5,751 bases of DNA. Origin: a virus. The notes under the pieces are model-generated. The model did not search any database, was not told the DNA's origin, and saw nothing but the letters and a program-made list of their open reading frames with translations. The stretch is taken from IMG/VR virus record IMGVR_UViG_3300045988_001841; one strand, given 5' to 3'. Of the stretch, positions 1 to 5,751 are shown one piece after another (within the stretch, counting starts at the first letter, position 1; every line of letters begins with the position of its first letter). The position numbers were made by a program, and so were the translations under genes.

Positions 1-55
1 GACAGCGTTAAAACATCAGATAAAATAATCCTAAACGAGCCGTGGCCGGCAAACA
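1..55. repeat. Terminal redundancy (left copy) marking a circular genome; identical to 5697..5751
   Basis: The 55 nt at 1..55 (gacagcgttaaaacatcagataaaataatcctaaacgagccgtggccggcaaaca) match 5697..5751 exactly, base by base. The VP1 reading frame continues in phase across the implied junction (5697 and 1 are both codon first positions). Confidence 0.95.
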
Positions 56-921
56 ACACAACGAGCTTTGTAAACACAGAAAAAAGTGGAAAACTGACAG
101 GAAAAGGCGTACAAACTGGAGCTAACTACATCGCAGAAGCATTCCTAAAGGCAGACCTCAGCAATGCAACCGCAGCAACCATCAACGACTTAAGAAAAGC
201 CGTAGCAGTACAGCAGTACTACGAAGCGCTCGCACGAGGGGGCAGCCGATACCGCGAACAGGTACAAGCACTGTGGAATGTAACTATCAGCGACAAAACG
301 GTACAGATTCCAGAATACCTGGGCGGCGGCAGATATCACGTCAATATCAACCAAATCGTGCAGACAGCGGATAACGATAAAGCACCGCTAGGCGAAACTG
401 GTGCAATGTCAGTGACGCCGATAAACGAAAGCTCTTTTACCAAATCTTTTGAAGAGCATGGGTTTGTAATTGGTGTCTGTTGTGTGCGACACAATCGCAG
501 TTATCAGCAAGGCTTGGAGCGTTTCTGGAGCCGAGAAGACAGACTAGACTACTATGTACCACAGTTTGCAAACCTGGGAGAGCAGCCTGTAAAGAAAAAG
601 GAAATCATGTTGACCGGCAAGGAAACGGACGAAGAAACGTTCGGCTATCAGGAGGCCTGGGCGGACTACCGAATGAAACCAAACCGGGTAAGCGGCCTCA
701 TGCGAAGCAACGCAACAGGCACACTGGACTTCTGGCATTATGCCGACAACTATAATACCGTACCAACACTGTCGCAAGAATGGATGGAAGAAGGCAAGGC
801 CGAAATTGCGCGCACACTCGTCGTGCAGAATGAGCCGCAATTTTTCGGCGCTATCCGCATAGCGAACAAAACCACAAGACGGATGCCACTATACAGCGTA
901 CCGGGCTTGTACAAACTGTAA
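1..921 (+). CDS. VP1: Major capsid protein VP1 (phiX174 F-like), C-terminal 306 codons; the N-terminal part is at 4968..5751 across the circular junction (full protein about 549 aa)
   Basis: Frame 1 is open from base 1 to TAA at 919-921. The translation (..ATINDLRKAVAVQQYYEALARGGSRYREQVQALWNV..IPEYLGGG..) carries the conserved Microviridae capsid block INDLR..Q..E..ARGGSRY..PEYLGG. The ORF-track entry 358..921 is only the part after an internal GTG. Confidence 0.93.
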   Translation, partial: DSVKTSDKIILNEPWPANNTTSFVNTEKSGKLTGKGVQTGANYIAEAFLKADLSNATAATINDLRKAVAVQQYYEALARGGSRYREQVQALWNVTISDKTVQIPEYLGGGRYHVNINQIVQTADNDKAPLGETGAMSVTPINESSFTKSFEEHGFVIGVCCVRHNRSYQQGLERFWSREDRLDYYVPQFANLGEQPVKKKEIMLTGKETDEETFGYQEAWADYRMKPNRVSGLMRSNATGTLDFWHYADNYNTVPTLSQEWMEEGKAEIARTLVVQNEPQFFGAIRIANKTTRRMPLYSVPGLYKL

Positions 922-932
922 GAAAGGAGGAT

Positions 933-958
933 GCCCGGGCAAAACCCGGGCTATTTTT
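933..958 (+). terminator. Intrinsic-terminator-like hairpin between VP1 and VP2
   Basis: gcccggg (933-939) pairs with cccgggc (945-951), a 7-bp all-G/C stem with a 5-nt loop, followed by tattttt (952-958). It lies 12 nt after the VP1 stop. Confidence 0.6.
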
Positions 959-960
959 AA

Positions 961-1818
961 ATGAGTGTATTATCTGGATTCTTAACAGCACTAAACGTAG
1001 CGGGAAACGTAGCAAACACAATCGGAACCGTTGCAGGAGCAGCTAAAAACGTAGCCGGAGCATTTGGCGGATGGGGACAGACAGGAAATAGCCAAAGTAG
1101 CGGCGGCAGCACAAGCCAAGGCGGCGGATACTCCGAAAGCGGAAGTCAATCGGGTACCAACGTACAGCAAGTCAATGACTGGCTAAAACAAGCATACGCA
1201 TACCAAGGGCAAGAGGCAGCCATGCAAGGCAAATACAACAGCCAAAGTATGCTTAAACAGATGGGCTATAACACACTACAAGCAATCATGCAAGGCGTAT
1301 ACAACCACATTGAAAACAGTGTAGCAATGAACTACAACAGCGCAGAAGCACTAGCAAACAGGAACTGGCAAGAGCACATGTCAAGCACAGCGTACCAGCG
1401 AGCCGTTGAGGACATGAAAAAAGCAGGGCTTAACCCTATCTTAGCATTCGCAAACGGCGGCGCAAGCACACCGGGAGGAAGTGCAGGAACAATCAGTGGA
1501 GCAAGTATGGGACTTGCAAGCAGCAGCGCACTAGGAGTAAGCCGAAGCGGTGGATTTGTACCTAACGCATACGAAAGCAGCAGCTGGAGCAAAAGCGACT
1601 GGTACAATGCTGCACAAAGCTGGCAACAGATGCTCAGTTCAACGCATATGACACCATACGGACTGCAACAAGCCTTAACAGAAATCGGAGAAGACACAAG
1701 CAAAGCAATTGACAAAAACGTACCAAAGAAAAGCGACAAAAAAAGCAACTATCAAGCGCCGCAGGACAAAACAGGAGCATACGGAGAAAAGCGAAAGCCG
1801 GGTGATTATTTGAAGTGA
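961..1818 (+). CDS. VP2: Minor capsid / DNA pilot protein VP2 (285 aa)
   Basis: ATG at 961 follows an in-frame TAA directly. The N-terminus is Gly/Ala-rich and a Gly/Ser/Gln low-complexity tract follows. The motif NWQEHMSSTAYQRAVEDMKKAGLNPILAF matches the conserved gokushovirus VP2 core (..TAYQRAV.DMK.AGLNP.LA). Its position after VP1 is canonical. Confidence 0.88.
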   Translation: MSVLSGFLTALNVAGNVANTIGTVAGAAKNVAGAFGGWGQTGNSQSSGGSTSQGGGYSESGSQSGTNVQQVNDWLKQAYAYQGQEAAMQGKYNSQSMLKQMGYNTLQAIMQGVYNHIENSVAMNYNSAEALANRNWQEHMSSTAYQRAVEDMKKAGLNPILAFANGGASTPGGSAGTISGASMGLASSSALGVSRSGGFVPNAYESSSWSKSDWYNAAQSWQQMLSSTHMTPYGLQQALTEIGEDTSKAIDKNVPKKSDKKSNYQAPQDKTGAYGEKRKPGDYLK

Positions 1819-2834
1819 GCTGTTACAAGCCATTAATAAGGCTGTACGACCCTAACGACAAAAACATTAGCGGGAGGGTGTATTCACTCTCCCGCTATTC
1901 TCAGTTAGCGGGAAAGCAGCTAAAATATGAAGATCTAATGTACAGAAAAGATGTAATGCTGATACCATGCGGGCAGTGCATCGGATGCAGAATCAGACAA
2001 AGAGAGGACTGGACAACACGAATAGAATTAGAAGCACGAGACTATCCAAAAGAAGAAGTTTGGTTTATCACATTAACTTATGATGATGAGCATGTACCGG
2101 GCATGATAGTAAACACAGGCGAAATCATGAGAAAAGTGAAATACGTCTGGAAACCGGGAAAGAAGCGCCCTGAAAGCGTCCAAACGTTGCTATATACTGA
2201 CGTTCAAAAATTCTTAAAACGTCTCAGGAAGGCTTATAGGGGCAAATTACGCTATTTTGTAGCGGGAGAATACGGAGAACAGACGGCAAGGCCACATTAC
2301 CATATGATTTTATACGGATGGCGGCCAACAGACCTAGAGCACCTATACAAGATACAACACAACGGATATTTCACGAGTAAATGGCTGGCAGACCTATGGG
2401 GCATGGGTCAAATACAAATAGCACAAGCAGTACCAACAACATATAGATATGTTGCAGGGTACGTTACAAAAAAGATGTACGAAATTGACGGCCAGAAAGC
2501 AAACGCATACTACGAACTAGGGCAACAAAAGCCTTTTGCGTGTATGAGTCTTAAACCGGGCCTAGGAGACCACTACTATCAAGAACACAAAGCAGAAATC
2601 TGGAGGCAAGGATATATCCAATGCACAAACGGCAAACACGCACAAATTCCACGTTATTATGAAAAAATGATGGAAGCAGAAAACCCACAAAGATTGTGGA
2701 GAATTAAACAGAACAGACAAGCAGCAGCCATAGCAGAAAACCGGCTTAAGTATGAAAATGCAGACTTTGAAGAGCAATGTAAGACAAAAGAGAGGGTGAT
2801 AAAGAAACAGATGAAGAAGAAAGGGACACTTTAA
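1815..2834 (+). CDS. VP4: Replication initiation protein VP4 (HUH rolling-circle endonuclease, phiX174 A-like), 339 aa
   Basis: GTG start at 1815 overlaps the VP2 stop (GTGA). The N-terminus SCYKPL and the Cys cluster CGQCIGCR are typical of VP4. FITLTYD is RCR motif 1. HYHMILYG is the HUH motif 2 (codons 2295-2303). YVAGYVTKK is motif 3, with two Tyr residues three apart (codons 2448 and 2460), as in the phiX A protein. Confidence 0.93.
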   Translation: MSCYKPLIRLYDPNDKNISGRVYSLSRYSQLAGKQLKYEDLMYRKDVMLIPCGQCIGCRIRQREDWTTRIELEARDYPKEEVWFITLTYDDEHVPGMIVNTGEIMRKVKYVWKPGKKRPESVQTLLYTDVQKFLKRLRKAYRGKLRYFVAGEYGEQTARPHYHMILYGWRPTDLEHLYKIQHNGYFTSKWLADLWGMGQIQIAQAVPTTYRYVAGYVTKKMYEIDGQKANAYYELGQQKPFACMSLKPGLGDHYYQEHKAEIWRQGYIQCTNGKHAQIPRYYEKMMEAENPQRLWRIKQNRQAAAIAENRLKYENADFEEQCKTKERVIKKQMKKKGTL

Positions 2835-2844
2835 CGGTGTCACC

Positions 2845-2878
2845 TAGCCAAGTACCTATCAAGTAAGGTACTTGGCTA
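2845..2878 (+). terminator. Perfect 13-bp stem-loop just after the VP4 stop (transcript 3' end and/or ssDNA structural element)
   Basis: tagccaagtacct (2845-2857) pairs perfectly with aggtacttggcta (2866-2878) around an 8-nt loop. Only TT follows, so the U-tract is weak for a classical terminator. Confidence 0.5.
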
Positions 2879-2920
2879 TTGTCATATAAAAAAACCATGT
2901 ATCAGTCTATTCAGTGAATA

Positions 2921-2946
2921 AAAAAGGGCTGACCTAAAGTCAGCCC
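2921..2946 (-). terminator. Stem-loop with terminator geometry only on the minus strand
   Basis: gggctgac (2926-2933) pairs with gtcagccc (2939-2946) around a 5-nt loop. An A5 run (2921-2925) precedes it on the + strand, so on the - strand the stem is followed by TTTTT. No U-tract follows on the + strand. Confidence 0.35.
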
Positions 2947-2979
2947 CTTGCGTCGCGCCCCAATCTTGGGGCTGCCGCT

Positions 2980-3030
2980 GTGCGCACGCGCGCACGCGCG
3001 CGCAAACGCGCACGCGCGCACGCGCGCATG
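2980..3030. repeat. Alternating purine/pyrimidine tract of about 80% G+C containing an exact 20-nt direct repeat
   Basis: GCGCACGCGCGCACGCGCGC occurs at 2982-3001 and again at 3008-3027. Purine/pyrimidine alternation is perfect over 2980-3004 and over 3006-3030, broken only by the extra A within the AAA at 3004-3006. 41 of 51 bases are G or C. The tract has many GCGC/GCGCGC palindromes and GTGCGCAC at 2980-2987. Confidence 0.9.
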
Positions 3031-3048
3031 ATATTATATAACTTGTTG
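3029..3048 (+). other. AT-rich motif resembling the phiX174 origin nick region (candidate VP4 nick site / DNA unwinding element)
   Basis: tgATATTATATAACttgttg, compared with the phiX174 origin core CAACTTG^ATATTAATAAC as I recall it: TGATATTA is identical, then ATAAC follows after a 1-nt insertion. The phiX-like element AACTTG also occurs at 3040-3045 and 3149-3154. Confidence 0.3.
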
Positions 3049-3076
3049 TAGTCGTAGTAGTAGAGGTAGTGGAAAA

Positions 3077-3243
3077 GTTGAAAAGTACTAAAATTTAGCG
3101 CTAAGACGTAAATAAAAAGCAAAAAACAACGTTGAAAGTTTTGTTGAAAACTTGTTGAGATGTTGAAAGTTCGTCAAAATGACGAAAAGCATTGTGCAAC
3201 TTTATGTTGAAAACCTGTTGAAAGTGTTGAAAGTGTTGAAAAC
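3077..3243 (+). repeat. Iteron array: nine same-orientation copies of GTTGA(A/G)A (consensus tGTTGAAAr)
   Basis: Exact GTTGAAA starts at 3077, 3131, 3143, 3162, 3206, 3217, 3226 and 3235. The variant GTTGAGA starts at 3154. Cluster spacings are 12/11/8 nt and 11/9/9 nt. The two clusters flank the palindrome at 3170-3186. Confidence 0.9.
3170..3186. repeat. Perfect palindrome TTCGTCA-AAA-TGACGAA between the two iteron clusters
   Basis: ttcgtca (3170-3176) is the reverse complement of tgacgaa (3180-3186) with a 3-nt spacer. It could be a dimeric protein binding site or a small hairpin in ssDNA. Confidence 0.7.
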
Positions 3244-3333
3244 GCGCACAGCGCTAAAAAGGAATGGATTTAGCCGAATTCCGCTGCGCTCCATACGGCA
3301 AGGCGCTAAAGCGCCATTCAAACCAAAAAACAA

Positions 3334-3361
3334 TTGACAAGCGACAAAAAAATGATATAAT
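3334..3361 (+). promoter_or_regulatory. Consensus sigma70-type promoter with extended -10
   Basis: TTGACA (3334-3339), a 16-nt spacer, then TGaTATAAT (3353-3361). An A-rich UP-like tract (aaaccaaaaaacaa) lies just upstream. The predicted transcription start near 3368 is followed by the GAGGA ribosome binding site and the peptidase ATG at 3387. Confidence 0.75.
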
Positions 3362-3386
3362 CAAAACAGAAAGCGAGGAAACGGCC

Positions 3387-3779
3387 ATGAGCATTAAAAG
3401 CTACCTTGTAAATACTGACGGAAACGTAAAACTAGCAAGACACTTCAAAGTAAAAGAATTTGCTTGCAAAGACTTAAGTCCAGTAGTGTTCATAGATGAA
3501 TATCTATGGAACGTGCTGGACATCCTCCGGCATAAACTAAGAAAACCGGTAATAATCACCAGCGGATACAGAACACCAGAGTGGAACACAAAATGCGGCG
3601 GAGCAAAATACAGCTATCATATGCGCGGTATGGCAGCAGACATCCGAGTAAATGGAATGACACCAAAACAAGTAGCCAACATACTGGATGAAATTGTACC
3701 GGATGAATGCGGCATTATCGTATACAAAAGCTGGGTGCACTTTGACGTGCGCAAAAGCAAATACAGAAAAGGAATCTGA
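3387..3779 (+). CDS. Zinc peptidoglycan peptidase, M15 family (M15A/DUF882/Peptidase_M15_3-like), 130 aa; putative lysis or cell-wall-remodelling enzyme
   Basis: GAGGAA (3375-3380) lies 6 nt before ATG 3387. The motifs are FKVKEFACKD, SGYRTPEWN..GGA, and the zinc triad H-x6-D...H: SYHMRGMAAD (His codon 3618, Asp codon 3639) and WVHFD (His codon 3738). The longer ORF-track start at 3264 would place the consensus promoter inside the coding sequence and its SD abuts the ATG. Confidence 0.85.
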   Translation: MSIKSYLVNTDGNVKLARHFKVKEFACKDLSPVVFIDEYLWNVLDILRHKLRKPVIITSGYRTPEWNTKCGGAKYSYHMRGMAADIRVNGMTPKQVANILDEIVPDECGIIVYKSWVHFDVRKSKYRKGI

Positions 3780-3863
3780 ATGACCTAACGGCGCATACTG
3801 GACGGACAGGTTCCGCGAAGTCAATAGTATTAGGGCAATCAGAAACAGAAAGGAGGTGTAACA

Positions 3864-3986
3864 ATGGCACTGATTAGCATTAAAGACGTCAAACAGGCAA
3901 TCCGGCTTATGATGCAGATTCTCGAAAAGCTTGACGAAATCTATCATGCGCTGCATGATAGCGTCAACGAAAAAGAAAAGGAGTAA
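3864..3986 (+). CDS. Hypothetical 40-aa protein (amphipathic helix; MALISIKDVKQAIRLMMQILEKLDEIYHALHDSVNEKEKE)
   Basis: AGGAGG (3851-3856) lies 7 nt upstream of ATG 3864, and TAA is at 3984-3986. It is below the ORF-track size cut-off. It is tightly packed with the next gene (2-nt gap), whose ribosome binding site is embedded in its 3' end. Confidence 0.6.
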   Translation: MALISIKDVKQAIRLMMQILEKLDEIYHALHDSVNEKEKE

Positions 3987-3988
3987 CC

Positions 3989-4216
3989 ATGATGAACAAA
4001 ACATGGAATGTGCGCGACCAGACCAAAGAAGCAATTGAAGAGCTGCTCGAACGAAAATACAAAGAAATTGATGGCAATTACAAAATGCTTAGAAAAGTGT
4101 CAAACATCGAGGATGCAAAAAGGCTAATAGATGAAATTTGGCAAATGAAAAGATTTGCAAATGCCATGGAGATGGAGCTAATGCGAAGGGAGTATAACAA
4201 TGGGACGACATCGTAA
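3989..4216 (+). CDS. Hypothetical 75-aa charged, helical protein
   Basis: AAGGAG (3978-3983) lies 5 nt before ATG 3989. The composition is Glu/Lys/Arg-rich and coiled-coil-like, with no hydrophobic segment. I recognise no family. Confidence 0.65.
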   Translation: MMNKTWNVRDQTKEAIEELLERKYKEIDGNYKMLRKVSNIEDAKRLIDEIWQMKRFANAMEMELMRREYNNGTTS

Positions 4217-4322
4217 AGCAATGAACGGCGCAAAAGACCGCCGTATGTTTAACGTAACCGCACGAAAAACCAAAACCATCAACCTTAGCCAGAAACCTAT
4301 GCGCGGTGGCATCCGGCTGTAA
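4200..4322 (+). CDS. Small highly basic DNA-binding/packaging peptide (phiX J-like, gokushovirus ORF8/VP8-like), 40 aa
   Basis: AAGGGAG (4186-4192) lies 7 nt before ATG 4200, and TAA is at 4320-4322. The translation is MGRHRKAMNGAKDRRMFNVTARKTKTINLSQKPMRGGIRL. It has about 11 Arg/Lys plus 1 His against a single acidic residue. As I recall, the C-terminal RGG(I/Y)RL is typical of the small basic gokushovirus protein. It overlaps the preceding ORF by 17 nt and is missing from the ORF track because of its size. Confidence 0.7.
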   Translation: MGRHRKAMNGAKDRRMFNVTARKTKTINLSQKPMRGGIRL

Positions 4323-4340: not shown

Positions 4341-4580
4341 ATGAAACATGAATATTTTGGTCTGTGGGACAGTGTAGCAAAGTGCTTTGCATGGGTAGGC
4401 GAGAGCAAGAACAGTGCAACCTTTGCACGTATGTGCAACGTAATGGCAAAGGATGAAAAAACGTTTGTTGGACAGGCACCGGGCGACTATACCGGCTTTA
4501 AACTGGCAGAGTTTAACGACGAGACCGGAACCTTTGAAAACTGCAAGGAAAAAGTATGGGAGGGCAAGCCGCATGAATAA
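4341..4580 (+). CDS. VP5: VP5-like conserved gokushovirus non-structural protein (79 aa)
   Basis: GGAG (4327-4330) lies 10 nt before ATG 4341. The segment PGDYTGFKLAEFNDETGTF matches the ..DYTLFELGEFDDETG.. signature I recall from gokushovirus ORF5/VP5 proteins. Its position just before VP3 is canonical. Confidence 0.7.
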   Translation: MKHEYFGLWDSVAKCFAWVGESKNSATFARMCNVMAKDEKTFVGQAPGDYTGFKLAEFNDETGTFENCKEKVWEGKPHE

Positions 4581-4590
4581 ACGATACGAA

Positions 4591-4614
4591 GAAGGGCGAA
4601 CGCCCTTCTTTTCT
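4591..4614 (+). terminator. Intrinsic-terminator-like hairpin between VP5 and VP3
   Basis: gaagggc (4591-4597) pairs with gcccttc (4602-4608) around the loop gaac, followed by ttttct (4609-4614). It starts 11 nt after the VP5 stop. Confidence 0.55.
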
Positions 4615-4629
4615 GCATCAGGAGAAAAA

Positions 4630-4971
4630 ATGCGAAAACAATACGTCTGGGCAAAAGACGAGAAAGGACAAGAAGTGCTGCAAGAAACGGCACCAATCGA
4701 CATCCAGCAAGAAATTGAAAGCTATGCGGACGAATGTGACATCAAAAGCATCGTCCGAAAAGCTAGTTTCGACCCGCAATTTATGAAAAGTCTGTCACAG
4801 GGAGCGTTGGACGGAACAGAAGTGGACATCACCGAATTTCCGCAAAACATCCATGAGTATCACCGCATGATTGCAACAGCACAAGCAAACGCCATGAAAC
4901 TTGAAGAACTGCAAAAAATGGCAGCAGCGGAACCTAAAGCAGAACCTAAAGCAAAGGAGGGAGAAGAGTGA
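4630..4971 (+). CDS. VP3: Internal scaffolding protein VP3 (113 aa from ATG 4630; an alternative start at ATG 4573 gives 132 aa)
   Basis: AGGAG (4620-4624) lies 5 nt before ATG 4630. The motif ..YADECDIKSIVRK.. matches the conserved VP3 block (F.DECDIN.I), about 35 residues from this start as in known VP3 proteins. The tail is acidic and Lys-rich. The stop TGA (4969-4971) overlaps the VP1 GTG. ATG 4573 also has an SD (GGGAGGG 4558-4564) and overlaps the VP5 stop, so the start is ambiguous. The ORF-track start at 4453 lies inside VP5 in another frame and is rejected. Confidence 0.8.
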   Translation: MRKQYVWAKDEKGQEVLQETAPIDIQQEIESYADECDIKSIVRKASFDPQFMKSLSQGALDGTEVDITEFPQNIHEYHRMIATAQANAMKLEELQKMAAAEPKAEPKAKEGEE

Positions 4972-5751
4972 ATCGAAACAATGAAAGGCACTTTAATCAG
5001 ATTCCAGAAATAAAAGCAAGTCGAACGCGGTTTAACCGTGACCAGACGATTTTAACAACGTTCGATTCCGGCAAGCTGATTCCATTCTATGTTGACGAAG
5101 TATTACCGGGCGATACCTTCAACGTAGACACGGCAGCAATCATCCGAATGACAACGCCAAAATATCCTGTTTTCGATGACGCGTTCATCGATTTTTACTA
5201 CTTCTACTGTCCTAACCGTATCTTATGGGATGACTTCAAACAATTTATGGGAGAAGTCGAAAACACGCCTTGGATGCCAAAAAAGGACTACAAAGTGCCT
5301 CAAATCGTAGTAAAAGGAACAGCAGCAGAAGGACTGCCAAAAGAAAACAGCATCCTAGACTACATGGGAGTACCAACAAAAGTTGACGCACAATTCTCAA
5401 TCAACGCACTTCCCATCAGGGCATACGTCATGATATGGAACGAGTTTTTCCGAGACGAAAACGTTGATAATGCAGCAACATGGAAAAGCACCAGCGAAAA
5501 TGTAGAATATCAAGACACAGGCGATGAAGGAAACATTGAAGGAAATTTACAGCGGGCAATCAAAGGCGGCAGATGCTTACCGGTAAACAAATTCCACGAC
5601 TACTTCACCAGCTGTCTGCCTTATCCGCAGCGCGGGCCGGCAGTAGCACTGCCGATGGAAGGTAATGCACCGGTATTTGGATACAACACCATCCAAGACA
5701 GCGTTAAAACATCAGATAAAATAATCCTAAACGAGCCGTGGCCGGCAAACA
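4968..5751 (+). CDS. VP1: Major capsid protein VP1, N-terminal part (continues at base 1 via the circular junction; 5697..5751 duplicates 1..55)
   Basis: AAGGAGG (4954-4960) lies 7 nt before GTG 4968. The nearby ATG at 4981 is out of frame and hits a stop after 10 codons. The frame stays open to the window end. The translation VNRNNERHFNQIPEIKASRTRFNRDQTILTTFDSGKLIPFYVDEVLPGDTF...RAYVMIWNEFFRDENV...KFHDYFTSCLPYPQRG carries hallmark F/VP1 motifs. Confidence 0.93.
   Translation, partial: MNRNNERHFNQIPEIKASRTRFNRDQTILTTFDSGKLIPFYVDEVLPGDTFNVDTAAIIRMTTPKYPVFDDAFIDFYYFYCPNRILWDDFKQFMGEVENTPWMPKKDYKVPQIVVKGTAAEGLPKENSILDYMGVPTKVDAQFSINALPIRAYVMIWNEFFRDENVDNAATWKSTSENVEYQDTGDEGNIEGNLQRAIKGGRCLPVNKFHDYFTSCLPYPQRGPAVALPMEGNAPVFGYNTIQDSVKTSDKIILNEPWPAN
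5697..5751. repeat. Terminal redundancy (right copy), identical to 1..55
   Basis: Exact 55/55 identity with the window start. Confidence 0.95.

Follow-up and report, generated by a model that had tools for sequence, protein, structure and literature searches.

How a phage enzyme that would cut peptidoglycan reaches the wall when its genome encodes neither an export signal nor a holin is the question raised by one gene of the IMG/VR virus record IMGVR_UViG_3300045988_001841. The window, by which we mean the whole 5,751-nt stretch of DNA analysed, is a complete genome of a gokushovirus-like microvirus, and its recognisable genes all lie on the plus strand. The gene, at 3387–3779 (+), encodes a 130-amino-acid protein that a first-pass annotation, made by reading the letters without database searches, had taken for an M15 peptidase with no signal peptide and no holin. 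We conclude that the protein is probably a soluble accessory endolysin of a gut gokushovirus-like microvirus, and that it would rely on a membrane lesion made by something other than a holin. The export step is the weak link of this reading, and much of what follows bears on it.

The open reading frame (ORF) is as annotated, and its product matches the Pfam family Peptidase_M15_3 (PF08291; clan Peptidase_MD; MEROPS M15) over profile positions 2–108 of 108, scoring 79.1 bits (gathering score 23.2) with an E-value of 3.2e-22. The best PHROG match is 894, 'endolysin' (E=3.9e-40), and Peptidase_M15_2/DUF882 is passed more weakly (31.2 bits versus a threshold of 27). The protein consists of one catalytic domain alone; a signal peptide, a signal-arrest-release (SAR) segment, a transmembrane segment and a wall-binding domain are all absent. 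All parts of the signature that had been read by eye (SGYR..N, H-x6-D and a distal H) are present and conserved in an alignment of 99 sequences. S59 and R62 of the S59-G60-Y61-R62 motif (codons 3561–3572, +) are at least 90% conserved, as is N67; H78 (3618–3620) and D85 (3639–3641) of H78-x6-D85 (3618–3641, +), the predicted zinc ligands, are invariant; and so are the two outer residues of H118-F-D120 (3738–3746, +), namely the distal histidine (3738–3740), the predicted third zinc ligand, and the aspartate (3744–3746). The roles of H118 and D120 are predicted by family analogy, and R62 would bind the substrate carboxylate. Comparison with eight relatives gives dN/dS values of 0.10–0.18, indicating purifying selection. 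The product of 3387–3779 is thus nearly certainly an M15_3 peptidoglycan peptidase, encoded by a functional-looking gene and not the result of a chance motif match.

An alignment-based AlphaFold2 model of the peptidase has a pLDDT of 95 and a pTM of 0.88 and was used in place of a single-sequence model (pLDDT 57), which was set aside. Foldseek searches of the PDB with this model return 1LBU at the top, together with the hedgehog/Shh N-domain, VanY, VanXY, Ply500, ChiX and LdcB. These neighbours make up the LAS fold class, although none of the solved structures is close (best template-modelling score, TM-score, 0.53). Against the predicted viral structures of BFVD, TM-scores of 0.90–0.94 are obtained with phage 'peptidase' proteins that are 40–45% identical. 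The model therefore allows a LAS / DD-peptidase fold to be predicted with confidence, and the profile searches and structure prediction that the first-pass annotation had proposed as checks both place the protein in the M15/LAS family.

The sole solved structure matched by sequence is 1LBU, the Streptomyces albus zinc DD-carboxypeptidase (MEROPS M15A; E 3.7e-7 with a profile), whose R138, H154 and D161 align with R62, H78 and D85 in phmmer/hmmsearch alignments; VanY can also be aligned over these two motifs, including SGYRT, but weakly (E about 0.1 by sequence). Although these residues align, 1LBU is only 24% identical to the window peptidase (TM-score 0.53) and, unlike it, is a secreted 213-amino-acid enzyme with an extra N-terminal wall-binding domain, and its bond specificity is not transferable. 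The suggested resemblance to the Escherichia coli murein L,D-endopeptidase MepK/YcbK (DUF882) survives as a weak likeness at family level, through the M15_2 match, but does not extend to orthology: the peptidase scores 40.3 bits against the MepK equivalog model NCBIfam NF053624, for which the cut-off is 185. MepK is an exported protein, whereas the window peptidase has no N-terminal export signal. Whether an L-Ala-D-Glu, D,D or L,D bond is cut cannot be read from the sequence.

Genes of this kind are well established in microviruses, more firmly than the earlier remark on a minority of metagenomic examples had supposed. Eleven human-associated Microviridae, of which five were Gokushovirinae, were shown by Roux et al. 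2012 (PMC3394797) to carry M15_3 peptidases; these authors inferred at least two horizontal acquisitions, proposed an endolysin role and noted that holin-containing cassettes surround the bacterial and prophage homologues. Microviral M15 peptidases were described again, and the endolysin role accepted, by Kirchberger in 2020 and 2022; Kirchberger et al. 2022, with roughly 13,000 microvirus genomes, name peptidases as one of the few kinds of accessory gene in microviruses and report a 700-nt peptidase block swapped between distant microviruses (MG945328 and MG945336). M15 peptidases or endolysins have also been reported in Amoyvirinae, Occultatumvirinae and Rhizobium microviruses. GenBank carries such annotations as well ('peptidase M15' in KX513868 and KX513877, 'similar to peptidase' in MG945xxx records), and the nr database lists 'MAG TPA: peptidase [Microviridae sp.]' entries and a 97% identical protein as 'peptidase [Microviridae sp.]'. 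The exact protein has no entry in the assembly index, where a 97% relative, P0001, served in its place. More than 1,000 homologues are present in the protein database, the best ones mostly on 5–6 kb contigs. The window peptidase belongs to the same Pfam family as the gut Gokushovirinae and Alpavirinae enzymes of Roux 2012, occupies the same VP4–VP5 position, is 63–98% identical to them at the protein level, and has in common with them the proposed role and the inferred horizontal origin; there is no essential difference. The presence of the gene, its horizontal origin and its recombination between microviruses are therefore already published or annotated, and the window is another member of a known group. 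We found no published account of the route by which microviral M15 peptidases reach the wall.

The claim that the peptidase has no hydrophobic or SAR segment at its N terminus is borne out. The N-terminal sequence, MSIKSYLVNTDGNVKLARHFKVKEF, is hydrophilic and contains no hydrophobic run, and in the predicted structure it forms part of the folded domain. The highest Kyte–Doolittle mean over 19 residues (KD19) in the protein is 0.92, and an in-frame upstream extension to an ATG at 3264 is also hydrophilic and starts upstream of the promoter. Neither of the next two products downstream, of 40 and 75 amino acids, has a transmembrane helix, as had been noted (highest KD19 values 0.92 and −0.08). 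No plus-strand ORF of at least 25 codons in the window attains a KD19 of 1.6, and in a scan of all plus-strand frames that disregards start codons and includes overprinted frames the top 17-residue stretch reaches 1.45 and the VP2 N terminus 1.31. No lipobox-like motif of the kind found in spanins, which serve in Gram-negative hosts, occurs in the first 40 residues of any plus-strand ORF. Of a canonical holin–endolysin cassette the genome therefore has the soluble enzyme without export signal and lacks the adjacent transmembrane protein; a single-gene lysis protein of the phiX174 E type is likewise missing, as no plus-strand frame contains a transmembrane-like stretch. phiX174 resembles the window virus in being a small single-stranded DNA phage that must arrange lysis with little coding space and no holin, but its E protein sits in the membrane, blocks MraY and cleaves no wall, whereas the window virus encodes a wall hydrolase and no membrane protein.

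The same pattern extends to related genomes. Among ten close GenBank relatives, a cut-off of 1.5 is exceeded in two places only: two genomes do so at the VP2 N terminus (1.56–1.57), and the genome L007 does so in an alternate-frame ORF that lies within VP4 (1.75). Four metagenome contigs have no stretch at 1.5, and 33 of the 34 IMG/VR relatives have none at 1.6. The exception, a 10.9-kb record (L036), was rejected as a relative with transmembrane ORFs: it is a chimera in which two unrelated microviruses are joined in the capsid gene (region 1–3600), a caution for automated surveys of gene content. As judged from these sequences, the absence of signal peptide and holin is a trait of the whole clade and not just of the window genome.

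More distant peptidase-bearing microviruses may differ in this respect. In one of them (L011, Dulem virus 189) a 58-amino-acid hypothetical protein with a strong transmembrane segment (Kyte–Doolittle 2.8) is encoded at 2607–2783, directly after the pilot gene. The microvirus Ebor (Tainavirinae, infecting Rhodobacter capsulatus; PMC11980548) makes Gp7, a peptidoglycan hydrolase of about 146 amino acids that is active by zymogram on sacculi. Gp7 is an accessory microvirus hydrolase like that of the window, which we set beside the M15_3 enzymes by description, although subfamily and host differ; Ebor also encodes a 45-amino-acid predicted membrane protein (Gp1), and the window lineage does not. 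Some peptidase-bearing microvirus lineages may thus have a holin-like partner that the clade of the window lacks.

The two small genes that follow the peptidase were candidates for dedicated partners, and both were rejected because they have counterparts in gokushoviruses without peptidase. The first (3864–3986, +) encodes a 40-amino-acid, net acidic protein with a predicted amphipathic or coiled, heptad-like helix and no transmembrane segment. It is strongly constrained (dN/dS 0.03–0.17), matches no Pfam, PHROG or NCBIfam family, and is found in 31 phage records; six of these are gokushoviruses without peptidase (L014–L019), in which it occupies the same place just before the gene for a small basic protein. 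It starts a few nucleotides past the peptidase stop codon in nine of the ten close relatives (overlapping it in L010), and in the window a spacer of 84 nt intervenes. It has been left unannotated in almost all GenBank relatives, while being kept across gut gokushoviruses with or without the peptidase. Its distribution indicates that it is a core gene of the backbone and not a partner of the peptidase. The second gene (3989–4216, +) encodes a charged, helical 75-amino-acid protein, with no transmembrane segment and no family match, that is present in six of the ten close peptidase-bearing relatives (L001–L010), has weak matches (38–41%) in peptidase-less relatives and shows dN/dS values of 0.12–0.15. 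A third small ORF (4200–4322, +) encodes the basic protein, again of 40 amino acids, which is conserved in all relatives and matches phrog_10695 (E=1.3e-10); in Dulem virus 189 the corresponding protein carries the annotation 'DNA binding protein', and the window protein is likely to be the small DNA-binding protein of gokushoviruses.

The six peptidase-less relatives have the acidic 40-amino-acid protein, the basic protein and VP3 in common with the window, and a transmembrane protein is likewise absent from them. Between VP4 and the acidic-protein gene, other small ORFs take the place of the peptidase, for example a Cys-rich protein of about 58–74 amino acids with four cysteines in ...KHCDRQCDKCPN...YYCSY... 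and a protein of 68–75 amino acids with a QWQSSV end. These sister viruses must also leave their hosts, equally without transmembrane proteins, and the simplest reading is that a function for damaging the envelope belongs to the backbone itself.

An endolysin-type role for the peptidase at the end of infection is likely because of its homology and because of the holin-linked context of its relatives in tailed phages. Outside the microviruses, the proteins closest to it are free-standing endolysins from tailed phages, namely Vibrio phages and Faecalibacterium phage FP_oengus, with 44–47% identity; in FP_oengus the endolysin gene (AUV56575, 44% identical) stands in a row with a 79-amino-acid ORF and an annotated holin. 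Like the window peptidase, the M15_3/M15A endolysins of tailed phages are single-domain proteins of about 130–140 amino acids with no signal peptide, but FP_oengus has a holin near its endolysin whereas the window microvirus lacks any transmembrane protein. Endolysins of the FP_oengus type also occur on 5–6 kb contigs that are probably microviruses, which agrees with the Faecalibacterium-affiliated gokushovirus peptidases of Roux 2012. In the reading we favour, the peptidase would be expressed from the main sigma-70 promoter along with the scaffold and capsid proteins, would stay in the cytoplasm and be harmless there, and would cut stem peptides or cross-links only once the cytoplasmic membrane had been breached. 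The breach would come from a lysis function of the backbone itself, common to the peptidase-less relatives and distinct from a canonical holin, and the peptidase would speed or complete the breakdown of the wall. The benefit could lie in slow-growing gut hosts, where a lysis mechanism that needs ongoing wall synthesis works poorly.

Several points weigh against this account. Our scans found no membrane-lesion factor, so its key step is an assumption; Kyte–Doolittle scans of this sort overlook ORFs of fewer than 25 codons and proteins that act on membranes by amphipathic or other unconventional means. The activity of the protein and of its close relatives is a prediction from family and fold. 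Whether a spanin-like function is needed would depend on the envelope type of the host. Finally, M15-domain proteins also serve as virion-associated lysins in tailed phages.

The export problem would disappear if the enzyme acted in the cytoplasm, hydrolysing soluble D-Ala-D-Ala or UDP-MurNAc-pentapeptide in the manner of VanX or VanY and so serving as a catalytic analogue of phiX174 E. Wall synthesis would be starved and growing cells would lyse without a holin. We consider both this activity and this route to lysis unlikely. They would account for the missing export signal and for the absence of a transmembrane protein from about 48 related genomes, the DD-carboxypeptidase 1LBU and the VanY/VanXY pentapeptidases are among the closest solved structures, and inhibition of wall synthesis is the established way of microvirus lysis. 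However, the strongest matches of the peptidase are to phage endolysin families (PHROG 894) and not to VanX/VanY, its likeness to VanY is weak in structure (TM-score about 0.43) as well as in sequence (E about 0.1), and its 44% identical homologue in FP_oengus adjoins a holin, which argues for action on the mature wall; moreover, the peptidase-less relatives must still lyse. Crossing of an intact membrane with the help of a small soluble partner, as Gp1 of mycobacteriophage Ms6 provides for LysA, or of a host transporter seems to us quite unlikely. The acidic 40-amino-acid gene, close behind the peptidase in nine of ten close relatives and inside a recombining block, would be a candidate, and holin-independent endolysins are documented in tailed phages; yet this gene and genes like that for the 75-amino-acid protein also occur in gokushoviruses without peptidase, which makes them not dedicated, neither has a family match, and 84 nt separate the peptidase from the 40-amino-acid gene in the window. 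The broader proposition that this lineage lyses by a wall peptidase with truly no membrane-lesion protein, whether through cytoplasmic attack on precursors or an undescribed holin-independent crossing, we regard as doubtful.

A part in entry, with a few virion-bound copies opening the wall locally for delivery of the DNA, is very unlikely. A T=1 capsid has little spare room, and the peptidase-less relatives infect without such an enzyme. M15A/M15_3 domains do occur within tail and baseplate proteins of tailed phages (Gp5-like, 646–1191 amino acids), and Ebor Gp7 is found in virions at trace amounts (PMC11980548); the window peptidase, however, is neither fused to nor similar to any structural protein, and its closest homologues in tailed phages are free-standing endolysins. 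A membrane protein or holin that is hidden, for instance on the complementary strand, is less likely still, even though Roux et al. 2012 (PMC3394797) noted in one genome a 153-codon complementary-strand ORF beside the peptidase and many hydrophobic ORFs lie on the minus strand of the window. All hydrophobic ORFs of the window are on that strand, and their hydrophobicity follows from its composition, because the antisense of an A-rich coding strand is T-rich (AT skew 0.2–0.5). The complementary-strand ORF at 3537–4034, which overlaps the peptidase, was therefore rejected as a holin candidate and taken for a by-product of the A-rich strand, its frame being broken at different places in relatives, and no plus-strand frame offers a transmembrane-like stretch even when start codons are ignored.

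The soluble accessory endolysin that we favour travels in a mobile block. The stretch 3242–4034 (+), which comprises the promoter, the peptidase, the 84-nt spacer, the acidic 40-amino-acid ORF and the first 45 nt of the 75-amino-acid ORF, is 94.5% identical in nucleotide sequence over 795 nt to the contigs L021, L022, L024 and L025. The backbone of L022, on which the comparison was made (L021 is 100% identical to L022 over the shared part), is far more divergent, with protein identities to the window of 45% for VP1, 47% for VP2 and 38% for VP4. The converse is seen in KX513868 (L001), where VP4/Rep is 94% identical and the peptidase 63%. These comparisons indicate that a 0.8-kb lysis cassette has recombined between divergent gokushoviruses, and that the peptidase, in the variable accessory region between VP4 and VP5, has a history different from that of the backbone. 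The arrival of such a cassette in a very different backbone is the kind of event described by Kirchberger 2022; what is added here is the 94.5% identical block across backbones of 38–47% identity, together with the recognition of the downstream 40-amino-acid gene as a core gene.

Contig L021 also carries the Proteobacteria-type cellulose genes bcsG and bcsZ fused to microvirus DNA (the join lying between 1–2901 and 2902–6753). The junction of bacterial and microvirus DNA falls 30 nt inside VP2, and there is no match in E. coli. The contig is probably a chimeric assembly, although it may instead be a degraded prophage, and it was rejected as a clue to the host because the position of the junction looks like an assembly chimera. 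A host search by scanning genome contigs gave as its sole match a 43% relative in a Gastranaerophilales metagenome-assembled genome.

The first-pass annotation had also pointed to the AT-richness of the gene as a sign of acquisition. It is indeed more AT-rich than the capsid gene (GC 0.415 against 0.494 for the capsid fragment), but as a mark of transfer this was rejected, because the GC of Rep/VP4 (0.421) and of the neighbouring 40-amino-acid (0.415) and 75-amino-acid (0.386) ORFs, and the GC3 of VP4 (0.424, against 0.427 for the peptidase), are equivalent. Composition says nothing about the acquisition of the peptidase.

The peptidase is, as described earlier, the first gene after the strongest promoter. 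The sigma-70-type promoter TTGACA-16-TATAAT at 3334–3361 (+) is the sole 12/12 consensus match in the window and ends 25 nt from the peptidase ATG at 3387; the two bases directly before the −10 hexamer are GA, where a promoter tool had flagged TG. In most relatives the peptidase is preceded, at a distance of 24–500 nt, by an 11–12/12 match, and a near-perfect match is found in the accessory region of two of the six peptidase-less relatives. The promoter at 3334 is probably responsible for transcription of all genes from the peptidase to the scaffold and capsid, which would make it a feature of the backbone and not a signal specific to the peptidase. A terminator-like GC hairpin with a T run at 933–951 (+), found in a consensus scan just past the capsid stop (921), probably terminates the transcript that this promoter initiates, the extent of the operon being inferred. 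The peptidase has a Shine–Dalgarno-like GAGGA at 3375–3379 (+), 7 nt before its ATG, and stronger sites precede the acidic 40-amino-acid ORF (AAGGAGGTG) and the 75-amino-acid ORF (AAAGGAG).

The rest of the genome is that of a typical gokushovirus-like member of the Microviridae, with VP1, VP2, VP4, VP3 and VP5 on one strand of a circle of about 5–6 kb. The first 55 nt are exactly repeated as the last 55 nt (1–55 and 5697–5751; an assembly overlap), giving a true circle of 5,696 nt, and the VP1 capsid gene (4968–5751 continuing at 56–921, +; Phage_F) is in frame across the junction only once this terminal repeat is removed. It is followed by the VP2 pilot gene (961–1818, +), the VP4 Rep gene (1815–2834, +) and a 552-nt ORF-poor region (2835–3386); beyond the peptidase and the three small ORFs come VP5 (4341–4580, +; Phage_ORF5) and the VP3 scaffold (4453–4971, +; Chlamy_scaf). 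The nearest GenBank records are gokushoviruses of the human and pig gut, with 85% nucleotide identity for KT264791 and 83% for KX513868 and MG945514, records classed in the Gokushovirinae; a metagenome contig (L023) is 91–94% identical along its entire length. A search of Rfam returned nothing meaningful.

The ORF-poor region upstream of the peptidase is structured. Directly after the Rep stop codon, at 2846–3030, there are two hairpins, one with a 13-bp stem at about 2846–2876, as judged by eye, and one with a 12-pair stem at 2923–2949, followed at 2982–3028 by an alternating purine–pyrimidine (GCGCACGC)n tract. This stretch could be an origin or a recombination site. Farther on, the interval 3077–3241 holds eight copies of GTTGAAA within 165 nt, all on the plus strand, where 1.06 would be expected and none of 200 shuffles reaches eight. 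Three perfect tandem TGTTGAAAG units stand at 3216–3241, just upstream of the main promoter, and the GTTGAAA array could be iteron-like or bind a regulator. The non-coding stretch 3131–3334 varies less than the synonymous sites of the flanking genes do (dS 0.17–0.29, against 0.5–1.7), and a piece of it, 3131–3232, recurs with 87% identity, inverted, upstream of Rep in distant gokushoviruses (L022 438–539; KX513864; KX513876). The stretch looks like a non-coding element that is either mobile or under functional constraint. A 52-codon ORF at 3179–3337 was rejected as a gene, its dN/dS of 0.7–1.2 and very low dS pointing to conserved non-coding DNA.

Gokushoviruses are among the most abundant phages of the mammalian gut, and how they leave their hosts is the question addressed here. 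Lysis by a wall hydrolase without a detectable membrane partner would reach beyond the window, to a group of gut microviruses that is large and has long been recognised. The peptidase-bearing lineages offer a practical handle on it, in the form of an easily expressed 130-amino-acid enzyme and a genome whose small size would allow synthesis and rescue, as achieved for gokushovirus EC6098. If the peptidase only assists a function of the backbone, comparing sister viruses with and without it would narrow the search for that function. If instead the enzyme needs no membrane partner, it would lyse by a new strategy and make a compact tool for lysis, and the 0.8-kb cassette would then be a minimal lysis module, portable and with a single enzyme, that spreads among gut microviruses.

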